A stretch of 64,000 bases of DNA from Acholeplasma sp. CAG:878 (GCA_000432255.1 HF989914.1:11270-75269); one strand, 5' to 3'; positions 2,969-62,657 are shown, numbered from the stretch's first letter. Made by a program: numbers and translations. Notes: a model not told the origin generated them from the sequence alone.

Positions 2969-3655
2969 TCAATATTTATTCAACATTTTTAATCTTCTAA
3001 TTACTTTCTTTTCGATTCTTGAAATATAAGATTGACTTATTCCCATAACCTCAGCAACATCTTTTTGAGTCAACTCAGCTTGACCATATAGTCCATACCT
3101 TAATGTCATTATTTTTTTATCACGAACTGGTAATTTATCAATCTCTTCATACAATATTTTTTTATCAATCTCATCTTCTAATGGTTTAGTTACTATATTA
3201 TTTTCTGTTCCTAAAATATCTTCTAAATGCAGTTCATTTCCTTCACTATCATAACTAAGACTATCTTCAAAACTAACTTCACTTCTTCTTTTTTTGTTTT
3301 TTCTTAAAAACATTAAAATTTCATTATCAATACACCTTGATGCATATGTAGCTAATTTAATATTTTTATCTAATTTATATGTATTAACACCTTTTATTAA
3401 TCCAATTGTTCCAATACTTACTAAATCTTCCAAATCCACACCTGTATTTTCATATTTTTTAGCTAAAAACACTACTAATCTTAAATTGTGTTCGATTAAT
3501 TTTTTTCTTGCTTCCTCTTCACCTTCTTGACTCCTAAGCACGTATGCTACTTCATCTTCTTTTGATAATGGTTCTGGTAGCTTATCCGCACTCCCTACAT
3601 AAAATATTTCACCTGTAAATATTTTTAATATTAATTCTTTAATTTTTTTTAACAT
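2969..3655 (-). CDS. sigE: Sporulation sigma factor sigma-E (pro-sigma-E)
   Basis: The protein aligns along its full length to B. subtilis SigE. The pro-sequence region ...EIFYVGSADKLPEPLSKEDE matches ...EVYYIGGSEALPPPLSKDEE, and LIEHNLRLVVFLAKKYENTGVDLEDLVSIGTIGLIKGV, KLATYASRCIDNEILMFLR and TQKDVAEVMGISQSYISRIEK are all shared. A GGAGGAATGAA SD lies in the 3' end of spoIIGA. Confidence 0.9.
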   Translation of the reverse strand: MLKKIKELILKIFTGEIFYVGSADKLPEPLSKEDEVAYVLRSQEGEEEARKKLIEHNLRLVVFLAKKYENTGVDLEDLVSIGTIGLIKGVNTYKLDKNIKLATYASRCIDNEILMFLRKNKKRRSEVSFEDSLSYDSEGNELHLEDILGTENNIVTKPLEDEIDKKILYEEIDKLPVRDKKIMTLRYGLYGQAELTQKDVAEVMGISQSYISRIEKKVIRRLKMLNKY

Positions 3656-3656
3656 T

Positions 3657-4421
3657 TCATTCCTCCAATAATTTTTTATTTAACAAACAATCTACTCCAT
3701 CAATTTTAATTTTATTCTCAAGAATTCCAATTATTACTTTTTCATATTCTTTTTCATTAATAATAACTTTATCTGCTTTAAAACATTTTATTAACCCTCT
3801 ACTAACACCAGTATAAGGTATAAAGTAATAATTAGCATCAATATTTATATCAATTAATAAAACTGCTTTTTTAGTAATTGGATCAACTAAATTATTGCCA
3901 GTATCTAAAAATCCTTTGCATTTTATTTCCTTTTTAGAAACATAAATAGTTACATCATAATAGTTATTATAATTGTGTTTTAACCAAATTCCTTGTTTTA
4001 TATACAAATATAATATTATCGGTGAGGATATAATTAAAAATACAAAATTAACCGATAACCCATTATTAATAAAAATCAATCCTTTTTGTTTATACGAAAA
4101 TGTTACATTTAAAAAGTACAAAAATCCTCCTAAAATCATACTTGTTGAATATAAATATAGTATATTTTTAAATGTATATTTCAAATCATAATATCCAAAA
4201 GTAATCAATACCATTAAAATACTTATAAATATTTTAAATATAAATAAAGTAAAAGTTGTAAATTCAAAAAACAAAAATAACATACTTAATCCACCTATAA
4301 AAGCTCCAAATATTATTCTTTTTATACTAGCATTTCTTTTTAAAACAATAGAAACAGTTAATAATAAAATAAAATCAAAGAAAAAATTCAAAAGCATAAT
4401 TATATCTATATATATTTTCAT
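3657..4421 (-). CDS. spoIIGA: Pro-sigma-E processing aspartic protease SpoIIGA
   Basis: MKIYIDIIMLLNFFFDFILLLTVSIVLKR aligns with the B. subtilis SpoIIGA N-terminus MKIYLDVIWLLNFCFDALLLLLTAFILKR. The protein is a multi-TM protein with the C-terminal FLDTGNNLVDP aspartyl-protease motif. The ORF-track start at 4478 is a TTG; the ATG at 4421 matches the homolog. Confidence 0.8.
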   Translation of the reverse strand: MKIYIDIIMLLNFFFDFILLLTVSIVLKRNASIKRIIFGAFIGGLSMLFLFFEFTTFTLFIFKIFISILMVLITFGYYDLKYTFKNILYLYSTSMILGGFLYFLNVTFSYKQKGLIFINNGLSVNFVFLIISSPIILYLYIKQGIWLKHNYNNYYDVTIYVSKKEIKCKGFLDTGNNLVDPITKKAVLLIDINIDANYYFIPYTGVSRGLIKCFKADKVIINEKEYEKVIIGILENKIKIDGVDCLLNKKLLEE

Positions 4422-4470
4422 AAACAAATTATACAAAAAATGATATAAATATTGTGTCGAAAGAAAGAAA
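4422..4470 (-). promoter_or_regulatory. Candidate spoIIG-type promoter: perfect TATAAT 6 nt before the spoIIGA ATG, with a Spo0A-box (TGTCGAA) over the -35 region
   Basis: Minus strand reads ...cTTTCGACAcaatatttatatcattttttgTATAATttgtttATG. The 0A-box consensus TGTCGAA is at plus 4455-4461 and the -10 hexamer at plus 4428-4433. No SD is present. Confidence 0.35.
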
Positions 4471-4491
4471 AAAAACAAGCTTTTTTAAGGC

Positions 4492-6803: not shown

Positions 6804-7754
6804 TTAATTATTCACAACTTTTTTATTTTTGAATTCTTCGATGTAAACTTGACTAATATATTCAATTGTTATATCACTATATTTATAAATTTTGGTTTTA
6901 GAATAAGGAAACTGATAACAATAATCTTGATTATTTTTTAATCCCTTTCTTTTACATATATCTTGAAATTTATTTGATGTAAATTTATGATTTGGACCTA
7001 GCGATAGCTCCAATGTTTCTTTTATCTTTTTAATTACTTCTGTAGCAGTATAAGGATGAGTTTTATCGATATCTTTTGGAACATTAATTATTGTAGCTTT
7101 TTCTCCACCATCTCTAACAACTGTGTATTTAATATCAGCTTCTTGCTCTTTTTTAGTAGATACTAATCTTAATGTTTGAGTTAAATTCTCATCTGAATCT
7201 AGTTCTTTTTTTATTTTTTTAAGCATTAACAAATTACTAGGATTTAATATTAAAGAAGAAACATCTTTATCATCTCCAGGATTAACTAACGCAATATATG
7301 GTGTTACCTTTTCATTTAAATTATATTCTGGAAATTGTTTTTTGAAAAACTTATTATAGTTTGTTAAACATCTTTGAAAAGCAGGGGATAATATAAAATC
7401 ATATTCTGGTAATATTAGATGTGTTGCTTTATTTCTAATATTTCTAACAAAAGAAATATTGTTCTTTGTTTTATCTGTTGTACTTGTAAAAACTTTCTCT
7501 ACACATTCATCTAGTCCAATTGTTCTATTAGTATCATCTTTATAATTTATTACATTGATATCTTTTGCTTTATTAATAAGATATGCTTTTAATAATAATT
7601 CCCAAGCATTACAGATAAAAAAACAAAATCCTTCAGTTCTATAATTAATAGTGGGTTTATTTATTATCTCAATTGACATTAAATATGCTTCTTCTGATTT
7701 ATTTAGTAGTGCATTAATATATTTATTTAATTCTTCTGTTTTGATAACTATCAT
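6804..7754 (-). CDS. Hypothetical protein, possibly DUF3644-like (N-terminal ...IINKPTINYRTEGFCFFICNAWELLLKAYLI... motif)
   Basis: 316-aa ORF with no housekeeping homolog recognised. The N-terminal motif resembles, as far as I can recall, the DUF3644 family often found in defence/RM neighbourhoods. It is a monocistronic gene next to tRNA-Leu. Confidence 0.6.
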   Translation of the reverse strand: MIVIKTEELNKYINALLNKSEEAYLMSIEIINKPTINYRTEGFCFFICNAWELLLKAYLINKAKDINVINYKDDTNRTIGLDECVEKVFTSTTDKTKNNISFVRNIRNKATHLILPEYDFILSPAFQRCLTNYNKFFKKQFPEYNLNEKVTPYIALVNPGDDKDVSSLILNPSNLLMLKKIKKELDSDENLTQTLRLVSTKKEQEADIKYTVVRDGGEKATIINVPKDIDKTHPYTATEVIKKIKETLELSLGPNHKFTSNKFQDICKRKGLKNNQDYCYQFPYSKTKIYKYSDITIEYISQVYIEEFKNKKVVNN

Positions 7755-8008: not shown

Positions 8009-8093
8009 TGGTGCGTGAAAAGAGACTTGAACTCTCACGATTATTAATCACAGACACCTCAAGCCTGCGTGTCTACCATTCCACCATTCACGC
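8009..8093 (-). tRNA. tRNA-Leu (anticodon GAG), class II with long variable arm, CCA encoded
   Basis: Minus strand: GCGTGAA-TG-GTGG-AATGGTAGA-CACG-C-AGGCT(T)TGAGG... The acceptor stem GCGTGAA/TTCACGC is perfect. The anticodon stem CAGGC/GTCTG encloses loop TTGAGGT (anticodon GAG). It has a long variable arm, T-arm GAGAG-TTCAAGT-CTCTT, discriminator A and CCA. Confidence 0.85.
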
Positions 8094-10627: not shown

Positions 10628-11635
10628 CTACCTAAATCTTGTTATATCATTAAATGTAATAATTATCATTAATACCATAAGTAAAATAAAACCAATCGAA
10701 TGAATAGTGTTTTCAACTTTTGGATTTAAAGGTTTTTTTCTTACCTTTTCAATTAACATAAACAATATTCTTCCACCATCAAAAGCTGGAATTGGAAGTA
10801 AATTAATAAACCCAACATTTAAACTTAAATATCCCATTAAATATATTACATAAATTAAACCTATTTTAGCGCTTTCTCCTACTATATTATATATTCCAAC
10901 TGGACCAGATAAAGCGTTTAATTTCAAGTCTCCGGTAATCAAATAAAATATAATTAAAAACATTTGCTCTACTAAACTAATAAATTTTAAAAACGCATAT
11001 TTAATTGCTTCAAAGAAACCATATTTAACATTTTCTTTAAGCGTAAATCCATAATTATCTTCAAACGGAATATTAATAACTTCCTCTTTTCCATCAAGCA
11101 TTGTTGTAAGTTCTAATGTTTTTCCATAACTGATTTGATATTCTAATAAAAATCTATCTTGGTTATTAACTTTAACTCCATTTATTTTGGTTACTACCAT
11201 TCCACTTTTTAAATTCATTTTATAAGCGCTGCCATCTTCAGGTACTTGGTCTATTACAACACTTCCTATATTATTTCCTTTAACTAAACCAAAAATAAAG
11301 AAAATTATAAACGCAAATATAAAGTTAAACATAACTCCGGCAATGATAGTTAAAAATCTTTGTTTCCAAGTTTTTGACTGCATTCTCTTTTCTTCTGGTA
11401 TGTTTTCATCAACTTCAATTGATTCTCCTGATAACTGAACATAACCACCAATTGGAAGTAATCTTATACTATAATCAGTTTCATCATTTTTTCTGTTAAA
11501 TTTAAATAGTCTTGGTCCCATTCCAATACTAAATTCATATACATAGATTCCTGCTTTTTTAGCAAACAGAAAATGACCAAATTCATGGACACAAACTGTA
11601 ATACTTAAAACTAATATAAAATATATAATTGTCAT
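10628..11635 (-). CDS. rseP: RIP zinc metalloprotease RseP/RasP (site-2 protease, M50 with PDZ)
   Basis: HEFGHFLFAKKAG HExxH motif in TM1, central PDZ-like region, C-terminal LNLLPIPAFDGGR motif; conserved cdsA-rseP adjacency. Confidence 0.85.
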   Translation of the reverse strand: MTIIYFILVLSITVCVHEFGHFLFAKKAGIYVYEFSIGMGPRLFKFNRKNDETDYSIRLLPIGGYVQLSGESIEVDENIPEEKRMQSKTWKQRFLTIIAGVMFNFIFAFIIFFIFGLVKGNNIGSVVIDQVPEDGSAYKMNLKSGMVVTKINGVKVNNQDRFLLEYQISYGKTLELTTMLDGKEEVINIPFEDNYGFTLKENVKYGFFEAIKYAFLKFISLVEQMFLIIFYLITGDLKLNALSGPVGIYNIVGESAKIGLIYVIYLMGYLSLNVGFINLLPIPAFDGGRILFMLIEKVRKKPLNPKVENTIHSIGFILLMVLMIIITFNDITRFR

Positions 11636-20690: not shown

Positions 20691-22088
20691 TTAACAATCT
20701 TTCATTTTTACCAAAGATAGTTCCCAACTTTCCATCGCATCGTAAACATCTAGGTATAACTCAAATGTTTCATTTAAATTAAGAAAAACTTCATTAGAAA
20801 GTTTGTTTCTATATTTTTCATAATCTCCTATTATACCTTCTTGATGTGGAATTGTTAATTTAATTCCATCTTTTGTTACTTCATTAACAATTATAGTGAT
20901 TTTACCCATAATCATTGGTTCATTAGTTATTACTTTATAATAGGTAATAATTGGTTGAACTTTTTGTTTTTCCAATTCTTCTGCTGTTCCATAACAACCA
21001 TGAAATGGAATATGTGTAAGTTTTATGTAATAATCATTATCTACTATATAATTAACTACATCTTTATTTGGAAAACCTTTGCTTATTATATCTTTTGCTT
21101 CCTCTGGATTTTCTCGCAAATATTTTAAAAATGTATATACACCTGTTGCTTTAAAATGAGGATTTAATTCTGCTATTTGCTTCGCTGTATACCCTTCTAT
21201 ATTAATAGCATTAGGTAGGGCATAAGTCTTTTTCATTAAATATAAAATAAACTCATTAAATATATCATCATATTTAGATAAATCATTAAATAACACTTTA
21301 GAAACATTATCGCTTTTTCCTATTTCATTTTTAAAATAATTAATAAGCAATTTAGAAAAGAAAGAATCGTTCACTTTATTTTCTATTATTTTCTCTAGCG
21401 GTAATTCCATTTTTATTTTGTTTTCATAATTTGATACTTTTTTAAAAAGTATTTCGTATTCTGATAACAAATCAATAAAATCATTCCAATTCTCAGGCTC
21501 TGCACCATTGCCATTTATTTGTTTATTTAATCCATCTATGTTAATTTTTAGTTTCCACGCTATACTTTTATCTCCAGAATATTTTGTATTCCAATCAGCA
21601 ATAATTGTTTTTAATCTATTACAAAATTCATCAAACTTCGAAAGAGAAATCGAAACATTTAAATCATTAATATATGATGTTTTACTATTATCTAAATATA
21701 ATAAAACACATTTATTATTCGTTTTTGTTAAAGATAAGCAATAATTTTCGACAACTACATTAATACTTTCTTTTTTTACTTTATCTTGTGAAAAATCATA
21801 GTTAGGAACACCATAAACCTTTTGTGGTACATTATCCTCTGGTTCTATAACATACTTTTCCTTATTTTCATTTTTTCTTTTTTCTTGAAGCCAATTTGGT
21901 ACTCCGTATACTTCTCTTGGCAAATTATCTTCAGATTCTATAGTATATTTTTCTTTAATTTCATCTTGTTTTGCCCTTGCTTCTTCTTCCCATTGCTTTC
22001 TAATTACATCAGGAATACCATAAACTATTTGAGGCCTATTATCTTCTGCCTCAATATTATATTTATCTTTTTTATTAAATAATCCCAT
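20691..22088 (-). CDS. Hypothetical protein with three N-terminal tandem repeats (KYxIExEDNxPxxVYGVPN) and a C-terminal domain of about 360 aa with no recognised fold
   Basis: Repeats: KYNIEAEDNRPQIVYGIPDV / KYTIESEDNLPREVYGVPNW / KYVIEPEDNVPQKVYGVPNY. The likely start is ATG 22088 (MGLFNKK), preceded by a GGAGGAAAATAAA SD; the first ATG at 22103 is inside that SD. It is the last gene of the island operon. Confidence 0.6.
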   Translation of the reverse strand: MGLFNKKDKYNIEAEDNRPQIVYGIPDVIRKQWEEEARAKQDEIKEKYTIESEDNLPREVYGVPNWLQEKRKNENKEKYVIEPEDNVPQKVYGVPNYDFSQDKVKKESINVVVENYCLSLTKTNNKCVLLYLDNSKTSYINDLNVSISLSKFDEFCNRLKTIIADWNTKYSGDKSIAWKLKINIDGLNKQINGNGAEPENWNDFIDLLSEYEILFKKVSNYENKIKMELPLEKIIENKVNDSFFSKLLINYFKNEIGKSDNVSKVLFNDLSKYDDIFNEFILYLMKKTYALPNAINIEGYTAKQIAELNPHFKATGVYTFLKYLRENPEEAKDIISKGFPNKDVVNYIVDNDYYIKLTHIPFHGCYGTAEELEKQKVQPIITYYKVITNEPMIMGKITIIVNEVTKDGIKLTIPHQEGIIGDYEKYRNKLSNEVFLNLNETFELYLDVYDAMESWELSLVKMKDC

Positions 22089-22130
22089 TTTATTTTCCTC
22101 CATATTATCAATTATATATTTTTCAACATA

Positions 22131-23225
22131 TTAATCATCACCATATACATCTTTTATGCAAAAATTAGGTTTTCTCTCATCAAAATTAAATGTATGAAAT
22201 GAATCTCCTAAGCAATATTTCCAATTTGAACATTTTTCACATTTACTACACTTTGTTCTGTTTTCGGTTCTAAAAATTTTAAATCTATTTTCCCATACAT
22301 CAACAAAATTATCAGTTTTGATATTTCCTTGAATAAATTCTTTTCTTCTTTCTACATCTGGACATATAAATATATCACCGTTGCTTAAAATGCTTGCTAC
22401 ATATAACCCAGCAGTACATATAAAATAAGTATCTCGTATTTCTTTTTCTAAATTTATTCCTAAATAATGACTACAACCATATTCAACATTCATTAAATTT
22501 TCTTCTCTTTTTTCTTTTATAAAATTGAATAAATATTTATAATCTTCTTTATCTAATAAAATATCGTTGTTGTTTTTAGCTCTTCCTATTGGGTCTACAT
22601 TTATAACTCTCCATGAAATAACATTTAACTCTTTCATCAAATTATATACATCTTCTAATTCATGAATATTTTTTTTGTTAGCAACTGTTGTAACTTGAAC
22701 AATCTTAATACTTGGTACTTGTTGTAATTTTTTTATGTTATTAATAATTTTATCAAAACTATTCGGTACTTTTCTAAAACTTTCATGAGTTTCTTTTAAA
22801 CCATCTAAACTAATAGATATAGTTTCCATATTAGTATCAATCATCTTATTAATAATTTCATCATTTATTAACATTCCATTTGTTGTCATGCCCCATCTAA
22901 ATCCAAGTTCACAAGCATACTTCATAAGAGTAAATAAGTCTTTTCTAACTAATGGTTCTCCTCCAGTAACATTTAAAAGTATTTCATTAGCATTATATCT
23001 TTCAGAAATATCTCTTAATGTTCTTTTTAAATCTTCTATACTTATTTCATCTTTTAAAATTGTATCACCGCAACTACTACCACAGTGTTCGCATCTTGCA
23101 TTACATCTTAATGTCACTTCTAAAAATAAATCTTTTAAAATTGGTTTTTCATAGAGTTTTTTTCTGTAATCAGCTAATTTATCCATGTTATCAATTTTAA
23201 TTTTTTTTATATATTCTTCATTCAT
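22131..23225 (-). CDS. Radical SAM enzyme with C-terminal SPASM domain (peptide/protein-modifying maturase type)
   Basis: CNARCEHCG (CX3CX2C), GGEPL, and a C-terminal Cys cluster C...C...CSKCEKCSNWKYC (SPASM, 7 Cys). AGGTG SD. Confidence 0.85.
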   Translation of the reverse strand: MNEEYIKKIKIDNMDKLADYRKKLYEKPILKDLFLEVTLRCNARCEHCGSSCGDTILKDEISIEDLKRTLRDISERYNANEILLNVTGGEPLVRKDLFTLMKYACELGFRWGMTTNGMLINDEIINKMIDTNMETISISLDGLKETHESFRKVPNSFDKIINNIKKLQQVPSIKIVQVTTVANKKNIHELEDVYNLMKELNVISWRVINVDPIGRAKNNNDILLDKEDYKYLFNFIKEKREENLMNVEYGCSHYLGINLEKEIRDTYFICTAGLYVASILSNGDIFICPDVERRKEFIQGNIKTDNFVDVWENRFKIFRTENRTKCSKCEKCSNWKYCLGDSFHTFNFDERKPNFCIKDVYGDD

Positions 23226-23236
23226 ATTTACACCTA

Positions 23237-24685
23237 TTATTTTTCATTCAGTATTTGAATAGACTTTTTTCTTTCTCCAGCATACCAATAAATTAAATGC
23301 TTTATACTTTTTATATCATCTAAATCATTTGTATTATTATATTGTTCTATATTTCTATTCACTATAGCACTTAAAATAGTCCCATCTTCTTGTATATCAA
23401 CTATATATAAGCAAATTCCTGTCCAACTTCTATATATGTAAAACTTATTATTTTCATAAAATGCAAACCAATGGTCTTCCATTTCTTTTGGAATATGTCC
23501 TTTTTTTAATTTGGTTAAATTTTCTTTCGTAAGTTTTAAATCTAATTTAATTTTTTTTGTTTCATTTGGCATATCAAGAATTTTCCAACTTTTTCTAGTT
23601 GCTATTTCATCTTCTTCGTATAAATATTTATCATAATCGTTTAATTTGTTAATAAATTTATTTATTAATTCAGATACATAATCTTTTTTTTGAATTACTT
23701 TTAACCATTCTTGTGGTATTTCATCAAAACCATAGATTAAACCTGCTAAACCACCAGTTAAAGCTCCAATAGTATCTGTATCATCACCGAGATTAACTGC
23801 TTTTAGTAAAGCATCTTTATAATTGTTTGTCGTTAAAATGGTCCACATAACTGCTTCTAAGGTATCAACAATATAGCCACTTGACTTTATTTCTTTTTCA
23901 CCTAAATTACTAATGTCATCTACTAAAATCCTTTTATATATATTTAAAGTAATTTCTTTGTCTCCTTTTAAAACATCACAATTATTAAACCATTTTTTTA
24001 GTAAAATATAAGCATCTTTTGGATTTATACCGTCTAATAAGTATTCTATATATTTTGAATAAATAAAACATCCAATTTTACTATATATATGTGAATGAGT
24101 TAAAGAAGAACCAGTATAAATAAAATTTTTAAATAAATTATCGTCTAAAATTAACATATTACCATAAATTGCTAATGGTAAAATACGCATCAATGAACCA
24201 TTTCCATTTGAACTAATATCATCATATCCACAATTAATTAATTTTTCTAATTTTGAATCATTAATGATATTTTCATTGTATTTTTCTTTTTTGTTTTTGT
24301 AATTTGTTAAAGAATAATTAGTAGAATTTCCTATATCAAAAACATTATTAAATGGCGTGTATTTACTATTAATTTTCCAATTTAAAAATGCATCTAATAT
24401 ATTTTTAAACATTGTATAAGTATTCATATCATCAATCGGTGTATTTACAATTGCATCCATGGTTGCTAATACCATAGAAGTATCATCACTCCAAGTTCCT
24501 TTCGGTTGATTATGCGTTCCATATTCTTCCATATCTTTTACTTTTTTTCTTTTTAGTATATTTCTACTTTGAAACTCAATTGGAACACCTAGAGCATCGC
24601 CTACAACAAATCCCATAATACTTGCTTTTATTCGATTTGATTTATTTAAATTTTTAGTTAAATTAGATTTATTACTAAGTATCAT
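23237..24685 (-). CDS. ADP-ribosylglycohydrolase (ARH/DraG family) with an extra C-terminal domain of about 140 aa
   Basis: N-terminal IMGFVVGDALGVPIEF and C-terminal GDDTDTIGALTGGLAGLIYGFDEIPQEW ARH motifs. Residues from about 345 to the end form an additional domain with no recognised homology. Confidence 0.85.
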   Translation of the reverse strand: MILSNKSNLTKNLNKSNRIKASIMGFVVGDALGVPIEFQSRNILKRKKVKDMEEYGTHNQPKGTWSDDTSMVLATMDAIVNTPIDDMNTYTMFKNILDAFLNWKINSKYTPFNNVFDIGNSTNYSLTNYKNKKEKYNENIINDSKLEKLINCGYDDISSNGNGSLMRILPLAIYGNMLILDDNLFKNFIYTGSSLTHSHIYSKIGCFIYSKYIEYLLDGINPKDAYILLKKWFNNCDVLKGDKEITLNIYKRILVDDISNLGEKEIKSSGYIVDTLEAVMWTILTTNNYKDALLKAVNLGDDTDTIGALTGGLAGLIYGFDEIPQEWLKVIQKKDYVSELINKFINKLNDYDKYLYEEDEIATRKSWKILDMPNETKKIKLDLKLTKENLTKLKKGHIPKEMEDHWFAFYENNKFYIYRSWTGICLYIVDIQEDGTILSAIVNRNIEQYNNTNDLDDIKSIKHLIYWYAGERKKSIQILNEK

Positions 24686-24696
24686 TATAACACATC

Positions 24697-26013
24697 CTAT
24701 ATTCTAAATTGTTGAAAAGAAGATTTGCAAACATTTAATTTTTCTGCTTCATGTATTTTTTCTTCTATATCTAATTGTTCTAATTTCTTATCTATTTCTT
24801 TTATTAAATTATCAATTTTAGTTGGTTCATTTGATAATTCAGTTTCAAATTGATTTCCAAAGTTTTCTTTTTTTAAACGAACAAACTGTTCAAGATTAAA
24901 CATTTTAATTTGCTTTTTTTCTAATACTGGCTTATCTATGTTCAATTTTTCAACTGGTATATATAATGAATCTACTTTTTCTTCATATTCTTGATTATTA
25001 ATAAATAATTTTATTGTTTTAGAAATTATTACTAAGTCACTTAGTTTAGTTATATAGTTTCCATATTTTTCAATCAAATCTTCGTAAGAACGTGTACCTA
25101 TTTCAAATCTAATATTTCTTGAAATTCCAGAACTTAACATATCACTTAATTCATTAACCATTTCTAATACATCAATATTATCAAGTACAAAATTAAATTT
25201 ATTATATTTTTTTGAGTTTATTAATATTGTAAATAATTGTTCAATAAACATTGTTGCAACATTATTTATATATCTATTTTCATCTTTGGCAATTAAGAAA
25301 ATAGCAGTCGGTTTAGTCATAATATCATCATAACTAAATGTAGTTTTGTTAAGTAAAACACTTAACATTTCTCTACTTACGTAAGTTCTTAATTTTTCTC
25401 TTGCAACTGAAACTATACTTCCTTTTGTTTCTTTTGGAGCAAGAAAAGTAGACGCCGCAAAAATATAAGATTGTGAACATGGATTTTTCAATTTAAAATA
25501 TTGAGTTATATAATCGCTAGTAGCATAATTGTTATTTATTCCATTAAACATTAAATTAACACTGTTTAAATTAATTTCTTCTTCCTTGCCATCCTCAAAT
25601 AATCCAAGCACAATACCAGTATAAAAATCTGATGCCGTATTTGACCAAAATGGGTCTATTGTAGAATTTTCGTAAAACATTATTTTTGCTTGTTTTTCTA
25701 TATAATCTATAGCTTCATCAATCATACCTTTCTTATATAAATTATAAGGATATTCTAAAGGATTCCAACCATCACTTTTATTTAAATCTCTTAAATTTAA
25801 TATAATAATATTATAGTTTTTATTCTTTAAATCATTATAATATTTATTTATGTATTCCTCTTTTGAATCTAGTATTAATAAACTTTGTCCATCATTAATC
25901 GCTTCCCCAACTAATGGAAACAATACATTTGATGTTTTACCAGATGAAATATCACCTGATACAATTAAATTTTTTTTACTATTAAGCATTTCTTTTAATA
26001 TTTCTTTTTTCAT
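24697..26013 (-). CDS. VirD4/TraG/TrwB-family (type IV coupling protein-like) P-loop ATPase core, without the N-terminal transmembrane segment
   Basis: Walker A LIVSGDISSGKTSNVLFPLV, then LLILDSKEEY, GWNPL and DPFWSNTASDFYTGIVLGL, which match the T4SS-DNA_transf / TrwB hallmark series (GxGKT...DpKgE...NPL...dpfW.nsA). Only 438 aa and no predicted TM helices. Confidence 0.7.
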   Translation of the reverse strand: MKKEILKEMLNSKKNLIVSGDISSGKTSNVLFPLVGEAINDGQSLLILDSKEEYINKYYNDLKNKNYNIIILNLRDLNKSDGWNPLEYPYNLYKKGMIDEAIDYIEKQAKIMFYENSTIDPFWSNTASDFYTGIVLGLFEDGKEEEINLNSVNLMFNGINNNYATSDYITQYFKLKNPCSQSYIFAASTFLAPKETKGSIVSVAREKLRTYVSREMLSVLLNKTTFSYDDIMTKPTAIFLIAKDENRYINNVATMFIEQLFTILINSKKYNKFNFVLDNIDVLEMVNELSDMLSSGISRNIRFEIGTRSYEDLIEKYGNYITKLSDLVIISKTIKLFINNQEYEEKVDSLYIPVEKLNIDKPVLEKKQIKMFNLEQFVRLKKENFGNQFETELSNEPTKIDNLIKEIDKKLEQLDIEEKIHEAEKLNVCKSSFQQFRI

Positions 26014-59312: not shown

Positions 59313-59669
59313 TTATTCAAGGCTTTCAGTTTTTTTATATATAACTAATGATAATATTCCTATTAATATATATATAATACCTATTGTAGTAATAGTTCTA
59401 AGTATTCTTGGCATCAAGGTTTTAATCATATTAGCATATTCTTCAAAGATAAAGTCTACTAAAGTTGGTGTGAGAAATCTTAAAACTATAAACAATATAC
59501 CACTTATAATAACAGCAATTCCTAATGATTTTAGTGGCTTTTTAAAACTTTTATTTATTAGTGACAATAACAAATATATAATCACTACAAATCCCAATAA
59601 TATTAACCATAAATATGGACTTTTTATTATATTAAGTATAATTACTACTGAATCATTCATTAACATCAC
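59313..59669 (-). CDS. Hypothetical small membrane protein
   Basis: 118-aa ORF with 3 TM helices; chosen over the overlapping plus-strand ORF 59275..59673 because it is co-directional and 17-nt-overlap-coupled with the upstream gene. Confidence 0.4.
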   Translation of the reverse strand: MMLMNDSVVIILNIIKSPYLWLILLGFVVIIYLLLSLINKSFKKPLKSLGIAVIISGILFIVLRFLTPTLVDFIFEEYANMIKTLMPRILRTITTIGIIYILIGILSLVIYKKTESLE

Positions 59670-60156
59670 CTAATTCTTCTCTTAAGGTTTTATTGATTTC
59701 GTTCAATAATTCTTCTTTATCAATTTCAATTTGCTCTTCCTTAAGTATTTTACTTACTTGTTCGTTATTTAATAATTTGTCTAGAGAATCATAATCTAAT
59801 TGTGGTATAGGAGCATCTGTAAGTTCATAATCAACCACTTCACTTATTATTTTTCCTAATACCTCTTTTACCTCTCTACTTTCAATTACCTCAATTGCTA
59901 TTTTACTATCTATAGAAGCACTTTCAAGTTCAGTTATGATTGCTTCTTCTATTGTCATATCCTTGTATTTTTCATCTAGTTCTTTAATTCCTAACTCACT
60001 TATTTTCATTTCTTTAATGTCAATATCATCTAGAATTTGTGTATAATAATTTTGATTAAAGAATCTACTTACTAGAAATGAAATACCAAATATTGTTATA
60101 CCTATAAAAAATATTAATTCAAATACAAAAGAAAATATTTTTGTTAAAATTTTCAT
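59653..60156 (-). CDS. Hypothetical protein, N-terminal TM helix + acidic coiled-coil domain (occupies the spo0B position)
   Basis: ORF only, 167 aa; lies between rpmA and obg, where Bacillus has spo0B, but shows no Spo0B similarity. Confidence 0.5.
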   Translation of the reverse strand: MKILTKIFSFVFELIFFIGITIFGISFLVSRFFNQNYYTQILDDIDIKEMKISELGIKELDEKYKDMTIEEAIITELESASIDSKIAIEVIESREVKEVLGKIISEVVDYELTDAPIPQLDYDSLDKLLNNEQVSKILKEEQIEIDKEELLNEINKTLREELGDVNE

Positions 60157-61104: not shown

Positions 61105-61200
61105 CTCCTTTAATCTCAGACTCGCCATTAAGGTACATTAAATGTTTATAACCTTTTTTGTGCGGTTGTAGAGAGGTCTCTACACAGTAATTAATTTTAA
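61105..61200 (-). promoter_or_regulatory. Candidate L21-operon leader RNA structure (ribosomal-protein leader)
   Basis: A GC-rich structured segment upstream of rplU on the minus strand: TGTGTAGAGACCTCTCTACAACCGCACA (nested stems), then GGCGAGTCTGAGATTAAAGGAGG leading to the ATG. This is the position where Firmicutes carry the L21 leader. Confidence 0.3.
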
Positions 61201-61211
61201 CACATTTTCCT

Positions 61212-61925
61212 TTATTTGTCAAATATTTTCTTAAGTATTTCTTTTTCTGTTAGCCATGTATTTTTAATTCTAAATAAATGTTTTTTATTCAAACTCATTT
61301 GTTTTAATTTTGTTATTTTTTTTGTTTTTTTATAATTAAAATTTGAAAGATATCGTTCTAGTAAAAATTTATTAAAAATTTCTTTTACCTTTTTATGTTC
61401 TAATACTACTCTATATAATATTAATAACATTATTAGATATAATAATATATTGTTATACTTTAATATAACTAGTAAAATCATTATATAAGATAAATATATT
61501 ATTAGTTTTAAACTAGAATAAAAAGATAAGAAATTATTAAATATTACATTTACTATTTTCGAACCATCCAATGGATAAATCGGTATTAAATTAAACAATA
61601 ATAGTGAATAATGAATATTCAATAAGGTATTATCTTTTATAAATAAACCTATTATTAATTGAAAAATTGGCCCTAATAGACTGACAAATAATTCTTCCTT
61701 TAATGGATGATTTATTTTGTTGTTAAATATAGTTAGCCCTCCAAATGGCATTATAATTACTTCTTCTATTTTCCATTTGCAAATTATTCCTGCAAATATA
61801 TGACCAATTTCATGAAATAAAATTAAAAAAGTGAAAAATAAGAAAAACTTTATATATCCAGTTATTAAACATATAATTGCAACAACATAAAAAAATGGAT
61901 GAATTTTAAATATATGGTTTATAAT
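61212..61925 (-). CDS. spoIVFB: Pro-sigma-K processing metalloprotease SpoIVFB (M50B), probably initiating at a non-AUG (AUU/AUA) codon
   Basis: The frame reads ...IINHIFKIHPFFYVVAIICLITGYIKFF...FHEIGHIFAG...IMPFGGL...NLIPIYPLDGSK...KFLLERYL. This aligns with B. subtilis SpoIVFB (KIHVHPFLWIIAALGLLTGHMK, HELGH, LLPFGGT, NLLPIWPLDGGK, RFLLERYY). Upstream in frame there is ATG GAG AGG TAG TAG ATT ATA AAC..., with GGAGAGG acting as the SD. The first in-frame ATG is at 61751, which is after the HExxH motif. Confidence 0.75.
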   Translation of the reverse strand: MINHIFKIHPFFYVVAIICLITGYIKFFLFFTFLILFHEIGHIFAGIICKWKIEEVIIMPFGGLTIFNNKINHPLKEELFVSLLGPIFQLIIGLFIKDNTLLNIHYSLLLFNLIPIYPLDGSKIVNVIFNNFLSFYSSLKLIIYLSYIMILLVILKYNNILLYLIMLLILYRVVLEHKKVKEIFNKFLLERYLSNFNYKKTKKITKLKQMSLNKKHLFRIKNTWLTEKEILKKIFDK

Positions 61926-62430
61926 CTACTACCTCTCCATTTGAAATGAATTTTAAATATAGGTTATTGTTTACTTCTCCTATTAAAACGCCACTATCAA
62001 TATAGTCATATAACTTAACATTTATATTATCTAAATTTGAATACCATACATCAATACCATTTTGTTGTTGTACTATTACAGTATTTCCATAATCTTCCTT
62101 CTCACCTATAAAAATAACTATTCCTTTTTCTAAACTAGGTACTAAATAGTTACTTCCAACTTCTAATTTAACTCCATCCATATATTTAGAAGCATCAGAA
62201 TATTTTAACTTTTCTTTAAAAACGGCTTGGTTTTCTTTTATAAGGTCTTTAAATGGCAAGGGACTTCCAAATTTACTTTCATACCAATTATTAATTGTCG
62301 CAAATGAAAAATTAGTATCATATACATATTGGTAAAATTTTGTTTTAAATCCAACATTTTGTTTTATTAGTATTAAAACCACTAGCATAATAATTATGGA
62401 TAATAAAAATTTTATAACTACTTTTTTCAT
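61906..62430 (-). CDS. spoIVFA: SpoIVFA-like membrane protein (degenerate LytM/M23 domain)
   Basis: NNWYESKFGSPLPF aligns with B. subtilis SHWFETKFGNPLAF. The C-terminal ...TVIVQQQNGIDVWYSNLDNINVKLYDYIDSGVLIGEV aligns with ...LTVKVQHADNTYSIYGELKDVDVALYDFVDKGKKLGSI. N-terminal TM anchor; overlaps spoIVFB. Confidence 0.7.
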   Translation of the reverse strand: MKKVVIKFLLSIIIMLVVLILIKQNVGFKTKFYQYVYDTNFSFATINNWYESKFGSPLPFKDLIKENQAVFKEKLKYSDASKYMDGVKLEVGSNYLVPSLEKGIVIFIGEKEDYGNTVIVQQQNGIDVWYSNLDNINVKLYDYIDSGVLIGEVNNNLYLKFISNGEVVDYKPYI

Positions 62431-62617
62431 TTAATCACCATTAAATTATATTATCATTTTATATTAAAAATTACTATTAACATTTCTTCATTGTAAGAAA
62501 TCGTATTTTTGATTTATAGTATATTTCAACTAAAAACTTCATTTAATAATGAAGCTTAGAGTATTTTTATTTAAAAATTTTATAAGTATTTAAAAATAAA
62601 ATATATATAAATCAATT

Positions 62618-62650
62618 AATAAAAGAGCCTACATTTTCATGTAAGCATAT
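62618..62650 (-). terminator. Intrinsic terminator downstream of tig
   Basis: Minus strand: GCUUACAU-gaaa-AUGUAGGC (8-bp stem with one G.U) followed by a U-rich tract. Confidence 0.4.
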
Positions 62651-62657
62651 ACTAGTT

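Follow-up and report, generated by a model that had tools for sequence, protein, structure and literature searches.

A predicted near-cognate start codon for a SpoIVFB-like protease gene inside the 3′ end of its SpoIVFA-like neighbour

The protease gene and its junction with the SpoIVFA-like gene

In the 64,000-nucleotide stretch of Acholeplasma sp. CAG:878 analyzed here (GCA_000432255.1, HF989914.1:11270-75269; hereafter the window), the minus strand carries a SpoIVFA-like gene that runs directly into the gene of a SpoIVFB-like M50 site-2 protease (S2P), whose reading frame opens without a canonical start codon. Very probably, the protease is translated from a near-cognate AUU at 61925 or AUA at 61922, in a predicted initiation event that would be directed by a Shine-Dalgarno (SD) sequence and is probably translationally coupled to the upstream gene. 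The SpoIVFA-like gene (61906-62430, minus strand) encodes a 174-aa protein with an N-terminal transmembrane segment and a LytM/M23 domain (PF01551, E 1e-12). Since this domain, as read from the sequence, contains no histidine at all, we consider it degenerate and non-catalytic, like the LytM domain of SpoIVFA. The protease open reading frame (ORF), counted from the first codon past a double stop, occupies positions 61212-61925 (minus strand) and comprises 237 codons followed by TAA.

Followed along the minus strand, the M50 frame runs ATG (61940-61938), GAG, AGG, TAG (61931-61929), TAG (61928-61926), ATT (61925-61923) and ATA (61922-61920), and continues through AAC CAT ATA TTT to AAA ATT CAT CCA, which encodes the conserved KIHP. 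The in-frame TAG TAG (61926-61931) closes the M50 frame, and the M23 frame reads GTA GTA GAT (Val-Val-Asp) at the same place. An earlier sequence-only reading of this DNA, made by a model, had reported this closure, and every position it gave proved correct; its distance of eight codons to KIHPF, however, holds only if the two stops are counted, as six sense codons separate the double stop from the K of KIHP. We also confirmed from the sequence its report that, from the double stop to the catalytic zinc-binding motif HEIGH (61800-61814, minus strand), the M50 frame is free of ATG, GTG and TTG. The earliest canonical start is the ATG at 61751 (61749-61751, minus strand), codon 59, where gene callers begin, giving a 179-aa product that lacks HExxH. 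The SD-like element GGAGAGG (61932-61938, minus strand), formed by the M23 codons (N)G-E-V, precedes ATT by 6 nt and ATA by 9 nt, and the upstream gene ends at TAA 61908-61906, both again as previously noted. The M50 ORF thereby overlaps the SpoIVFA-like 3′ end by 20 nt, in the +1 frame relative to M23. Of all plausible genes among the window's open stretches of 80 codons or longer, only the M50 ORF has a long gap (58 codons) between the upstream stop and its first canonical start. Since 58 codons free of ATG, GTG and TTG would arise by chance in about 8% of cases (hand estimate from base composition), the weight of the missing start comes from homology.

The predicted protein matched Pfam Peptidase_M50 (PF02163, E 2e-12) from residue 27 onward, and a profile of its family matched the B. 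subtilis SpoIVFB structures 8VJL/8VJM with an E-value of 7e-44 over SpoIVFB residues 10-218, spanning KIHVHPF through HELGH and NxxPxxxxDG to FLLERY. The next-best structure for the family profile was the archaeal MjS2P (3B4R, E 8e-15). The second S2P active-site motif (NxxPxxxxDG) is present as NLIPIYPLDG (61563-61592, minus strand), and in an alignment of 20 sequences H38, E39, H42, N112, P115, D120 and G121, which belong to the HEIGH and NLIPIYPLDG motifs, are invariant. By these sequence criteria, the window protease is a true SpoIVFB-subfamily S2P. A search of NCBIfam returned no SpoIVFB-specific match for the protease and only sub-threshold M23 matches for its partner. As at the spoIVFA-spoIVFB locus of B. 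subtilis, the SpoIVFB-subfamily M50 gene lies directly past that of a degenerate-LytM membrane protein and upstream of rplU-ysxB-rpmA. Several features set the window locus apart from that of B. subtilis. The SpoIVFA-like protein is shorter, the start is non-canonical, and the host belongs to an uncultured gut 'Bacilli' lineage of 26% GC that is represented by metagenome-assembled genomes (MAGs). The protease, at 237 aa, is also shorter than the 314-residue chain of 8VJL, the native B. subtilis protein being 288 aa long; Pfam detected no CBS domain in it, and only about 45 residues follow FLLERY. The B. subtilis SpoIVFB truncations BΔ66 and BΔ10 (presumed to be C-terminal) still activate sigma-K (PMC6242693). 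A separate RseP/RasP-type M50 protein of 335 aa, with a full-length PF02163 match, an ATG start and a TAG stop, is encoded elsewhere in the window (10631-11635, minus strand), where it adjoins cdsA.

Conservation of the start-less arrangement

The junction ATG GAG AGG TAG TAG ATT ATA recurs identically in assemblies from nine other samples (L001-4, L008-10, L013-14), whose proteins are 94-99% identical to that of the window and whose frames are all intact. An error in reads or assembly, which the sequence-only reading had named as the finding that would overturn it, is thus ruled out by nine independent metagenome assemblies. We compared the window with one of these relatives (L008) over codons 7-58, a stretch clear of the overlap and preceding the first ATG, and found six synonymous and two nonsynonymous changes, corresponding to a ratio of nonsynonymous to synonymous rates (dN/dS) of 0.07; the remainder of the gene gave 0.06. 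This substitution pattern indicates that the N-terminal segment of the protease is under purifying selection. A scan of metagenome contigs added only OGNF01000057.1 (100% identity) and distant relatives, and among these contigs no close relative with a mutated ATT or ATA, able to separate the two candidate codons, was found. One further sequence (P0084, 89% identity over half its length) looks chimeric or partial and was not used.

To follow the junction across the family, the contigs of species-representative genomes were scanned, which gave 80 loci. The active-site motifs were located in 78 of these, and in each of the 78 the frame was traced back from HExxH until an in-frame stop was met. 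By aligning the SpoIVFA tails, we defined p0 as the codon homologous to the window ATT and p1 as that homologous to the window ATA, with p-1 and p-5 lying one and five codons before p0. All matches belong to MAGs of uncultured gut bacteria that carry the labels Bacilli, Tenericutes or Firmicutes, the closest species representative being only 51% identical. A canonical start at or before the conserved N-terminus was present in 46 of the 78 species, and no usable one in the other 32 (41%). In 13 of these start-less species HExxH is not preceded by any canonical start; in the other 19 a canonical start occurs only within the first transmembrane segment, 12-27 codons ahead of the catalytic His. 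For 31 of the 32 species, I-I-K-N-like residues open the ORF immediately behind a TAG, TAA or TGA, the exception (L031) having no stop at this site. Several records with this Bacilli-type operon (L025, L026, L028, L030 and others) are titled 'uncultured Muribaculaceae', 'Ignavibacteriales', 'Roseburia' or 'Oscillospiraceae' and are probably mislabelled or contaminated bins.

Across the start-less species, p1 is ATA or ATC without exception (32 of 32), and in 17 of the species with canonical starts it is ATG. Only seven species have a non-AUN p1, and all of them carry TTG or ATG one or two codons earlier; the retention of AUN at p1 gave a hypergeometric p of ~0.02 (computed by hand and uncorrected for phylogeny). 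ATT occupies p0 in 26 of the 32 start-less species, in keeping with the conservation across relatives that the sequence-only reading had proposed to look for, and it is identical in the nine close assemblies. In the remaining start-less species, p0 is ACT, AGT, AAT, GTT or CTT, none of them near-cognate to AUG, so that p1 is the only near-cognate codon available there.

In support of SD-directed initiation, the predicted duplex between the 3′ end of 16S rRNA and the 20 nt upstream of p1 reaches -8.1 kcal/mol in the window and averages -7.3 kcal/mol over the 32 start-less species. The corresponding mean is weaker, -5.5 kcal/mol, in loci with ATG at p1 or at the codon after it (Mann-Whitney p = 0.004), and randomly chosen positions of these loci average -2.5 kcal/mol. 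The GGAG register shared across the family precedes p0 by 8 nt and p1 by 11 nt, and the GAGG register of the window precedes them by 6 and 9 nt. SD spacing would thus slightly favour AUU at p0 (61923-61925, minus strand), whereas universality would favour AUA at p1 (61920-61922, minus strand), and both codons may serve as starts.

The relatives also suggest how the double stop arose. Homologous proteins begin MERRWIIKNIFKIHP, MERFWIIKN, MVRLLTTNHIFKIHP or MITNHTFKIHP, and the window frame, which reads MER, two stops and then IINHIFKIHP, aligns without gaps with such N-termini (MERRWIIKN, MVRLLTTNH). Therefore, the upstream ATG of the window (61938-61940, minus strand), a vestige now cut off by the stops and aligned with the initiator Met of homologs, corresponds to the start codon of other family members, and the two TAGs stand at sense positions. 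At this site the M50 frame reads ATG GTG AGG TTA TTG ACT in L011, where it is open, and ATG GTG AGG TAA TTG, a stop followed by a TTG start, in L005 and L012; it reads AAG TAG TTG in L020 and AGG TAG TAG in the window. The ancestral family would have started canonically, at an ATG five codons upstream or a TTG one codon upstream, and synonymous or conservative changes in the SpoIVFA frame, namely a silent Val change from GTT to GTA and a two-step change of ATT, first to GTT (Ile to Val) and then silently to GTA, would have turned the M50 codons into TAG TAG. The last step, to GTA, would have destroyed the TTG, the gene nevertheless staying under selection. The sequence-only reading had also named, as an observation that would count against it, orthologs with a canonical start from which this genome differs by one indel; canonical starts at neighbouring codons do occur, but the differences are substitutions carried by many assemblies, with no indel.

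Predicted initiation and rival explanations

Purifying selection, recurrence in 32 of 78 species and SD enrichment support initiation at AUU or AUA behind GGAGAGG, possibly coupled, which the sequence-only reading had already suggested. The start codon would sit 20 (AUU) or 17 (AUA) nt inside the SpoIVFA-like 3′ end, where GGAGAGG, within the SpoIVFA codons Gly-Glu-Val, would position the ribosome, and ribosomes translating or terminating on the SpoIVFA-like gene would probably help by translational coupling. With so weak a codon, the protease would be made in much smaller amounts than its partner and inhibitor, a sensible consequence given that SpoIVFB is held inactive by SpoIVFA and BofA (PMC6242693). 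The choice of codon, a contribution of coupling and low expression are all inferences. The mapped AUU and AUA starts of S. aureus (infC, ccpN, cvfC1 and citZ) all have strong or extended SDs (PMC13009471).

Several points weigh against this interpretation. The C-terminal Leu-Asp-Tyr-Lys of SpoIVFA (TTA GAT TAT AAA) by itself dictates TAG ATT ATA and GGAG, and this dual coding forbids ascribing the base conservation at the junction solely to the M50 start. The N-terminal dN/dS rests on only eight substitutions, and a GTG acquired by L008 at codon 15 (index 14, with ATT as 0) could serve as a start in that lineage, two of the six synonymous changes lying upstream of this GTG. Moreover, p0 and p1 cannot be told apart, and near-cognate starts are weak, AUU and AUA giving about 10-30% of AUG output in S. 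aureus reporters (PMC13009471), so that expression of the protease may be very low.

A mechanistic variant of near-cognate initiation makes the coupling obligatory. There would be no de novo initiation, ribosomes ending at TAA 61908-61906 would scan back 15-20 nt and reinitiate at AUA or AUU, and the protease would amount to a fixed small fraction of SpoIVFA. Post-termination ribosomes are documented to scan in both directions and to reinitiate near the stop codon (PMC2268962), and the overlap is conserved, the SpoIVFA-like stop beginning 17 nt past p0 in the window and about 17-26 nt past it across the loci examined (hand count from M23 tail lengths). Local RNA structure at the junction is likewise nothing significant (minimum free energy -11.1 kcal/mol, z = 0.09), leaving none that would need melting. 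The strong SD-like element, stronger where the start is non-canonical, speaks instead for SD-directed selection of the start, and initiation factor 3 (IF3) disfavours reinitiation at non-canonical codons (PMC2268962), so we regard strict dependence on termination as possible but unlikely. The sequence-only reading had offered another source of reinitiating ribosomes, the three-codon mini-ORF ATG GAG AGG TAG, which does occur in the window, its end 3 nt ahead of ATT. Its ATG, the vestige described above, has no SD upstream and is missing in many start-less species (such as L040, L041, L045, L047, L051, L055 and L063, and likewise L066, L069, L078, L079, L085 and L088), which makes a role for the mini-ORF extremely unlikely.

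The remaining alternatives dispense with initiation at the near-cognate codons altogether. Decay of the gene, with the start lost and the HExxH region untranslated, or with only a 179-aa fragment made from ATG 61751, would account for the missing canonical start and for the 179-aa products of gene callers. It is nonetheless very unlikely, as dN/dS upstream of ATG 61751 equals that of the downstream part, the frame is intact in all assemblies, and 32 species share the arrangement with KIHP, the first transmembrane segment and HExxH conserved; a random 37-codon frame would stay open at only ~3% of loci (hand estimate, AT-rich composition). Initiation at ATG 61940 with readthrough of TAG TAG, by a suppressor tRNA or through TAG reassignment, would agree with the alignment of this ATG to the homologs' start Met and with the TAGs standing at sense positions of the homologs. 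It is ruled out, or at best barely conceivable, because about 16 ORFs of the window terminate with TAG, among them the Pfam-supported RseP-like M50, cdsA, ruvA, ftsY and gyrB/parE, and because TAA, TAG and TGA are all seen at the homologous stop site in relatives. Readthrough also meets the same difficulties as the mini-ORF, namely the want of an SD before ATG 61940 and the absence of this ATG from many relatives, and the only tRNA gene of the window lies at 8012-8093 (minus strand; anticodon not read). A programmed +1 frameshift out of the SpoIVFA frame, yielding a SpoIVFA-SpoIVFB fusion, has the overlap and the +1 relation of the two frames in its favour and is scarcely credible otherwise. 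The relatives conserve no slippery or hungry-codon site, their M23 tails differ past Tyr in both length and sequence, and over half of the family members carry an ATG or TTG of their own at p-1, p1 or p-5 within the same architecture. The SD-like element lies ~24 nt from the M23 stop, unlike in prfB, where the SD is 3 nt from the stop. The fusion would also be mis-oriented in the membrane, the LytM domain being extracytoplasmic and the SpoIVFB N-terminus cytoplasmic in the B. subtilis topology.

SD-directed initiation at AUU or AUA has known counterparts, among them infC (AUU in E. coli, AUA in S. aureus), pcnB (AUU), ccpN of S. aureus and B. subtilis (AUA) and cvfC1 (AUU) (PMC13009471). With these genes the window locus shares a conserved near-cognate AUN start behind a good or extended SD and lowered translation, which in them drops to about one tenth of the AUG level; these features of the known genes are matched here by a predicted start. 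Unlike them, it has its putative start placed within the 3′ end of the preceding gene, in a dual-coding overlap of 20 nt, and its start codon drifts among species (TTG, ATT, ATA, ATC or ATG at three adjacent codons); unlike at infC, nothing at the window locus suggests IF3-type autoregulation. Coupled overlapping pairs such as the MS2 coat and lysis genes, for which termination-reinitiation was described by Adhin and van Duin (1990; as summarized in PMC2268962), resemble it in having the downstream start a few codons before the upstream stop. The window junction differs from them in that an SD is present and coupling is only predicted. The mechanism itself is not new, as AUU or AUA initiation with a strong SD and the coupling of overlapping genes are both known. 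What is new is the gene family and the breadth of the predicted arrangement, about 40% of the sampled species in a large uncultured clade, together with the use of three adjacent alternative start positions (TTG at p-1, AUU at p0, and AUA, AUC or AUG at p1). Searching the literature, we found no specific account of a non-canonical spoIVFB start or of a spoIVFA/B overlap.

The family could thus provide a natural, multi-species and dual-coding example of AUN initiation in Firmicutes, in which SD strength, spacing and coupling could be tested as compensation for a weak start, and the locus could be used to ask whether checkpoint fidelity depends on keeping SpoIVFB scarce compared with SpoIVFA. 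A more speculative and rather improbable extension holds that mutation pressure toward AT in the spoIVFA codons of the overlap (Leu TTA, Val GTA) repeatedly destroyed the canonical spoIVFB start, and that the clade settled on AUA, AUC or AUU initiation by spoIVFA-terminating ribosomes, selected family-wide and hard-wiring a sub-stoichiometric protease. If this were true, near-cognate reinitiation would be a selected guard against premature pro-sigma-K processing and not a tolerated accident.

Annotation, gene neighbourhood and other features of the window

Database entries store the protease N-terminally truncated because Prodigal-type gene callers allow only ATG, GTG and TTG. Comparison with the DNA confirmed such calls for P0006-8 (179 aa), P0001-3 (223 aa) and P0009, in which an internal ATG or GTG start removes HExxH or the first transmembrane segment; for P0098, P0111 and P0115 truncation was deduced from the protein sequences alone. 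By extension, about 40% of the species in the clade would be mis-annotated, and surveys of sporulation genes would undercount functional spoIVFB.

Downstream of the protease gene lie an L21 leader (61108-61177, minus strand; RF00559, 54.8 bits) and then, by their Pfam families, rplU, prp (ysxB), rpmA and obg, with rplU-ysxB-rpmA in the B. subtilis order downstream of spoIVFB. Between rpmA and obg, two overlapping genes (59313-60156, minus strand) encode hydrophobic proteins of 118 and 167 aa, for which no Pfam match is recorded in relatives. Their position is kept in all close relatives, and spo0B occupies this place in B. subtilis. In L001-4, L008-10 and L013, a segment of 744 bp carrying a gene for a 223-aa S-adenosylmethionine-dependent methyltransferase lies between tig and the SpoIVFA-like gene. 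This segment (L001 1402-2145) is cleanly missing from the window (62431-62657), with flanks 99.7-100% identical, although L001-4, which carry it, are otherwise 99% identical relatives.

Further sporulation genes are present at the other end of the window, where SpoIIGA (Peptidase_U4, PF03419, E 2e-47) is followed by a sigma-70-family gene (2972-4478, minus strand) in the classic spoIIGA-sigE arrangement. The uncultured 26% GC lineage therefore carries mother-cell sporulation machinery, and on its gene content the host is a walled Firmicute with sporulation genes. No sigK gene was found within the 64 kb of the window.

Two other regions of the window, both on the minus strand, stand out. At 20694-26013, genes for a 470-aa protein without a Pfam match, a radical SAM/SPASM enzyme, an ADP-ribosylglycohydrolase and an ATPase resembling type IV secretion system coupling proteins form a cluster, which could be a maturation locus for peptides made by ribosomes and modified after translation (RiPPs) or a mobile-element or defence-like island inside a housekeeping region. 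At 6807-7754, a gene for a protein combining DUF3644 with an EC042_2821-like restriction-endonuclease fold adjoins the tRNA gene at 8012-8093 and may be an integrated or defence element.

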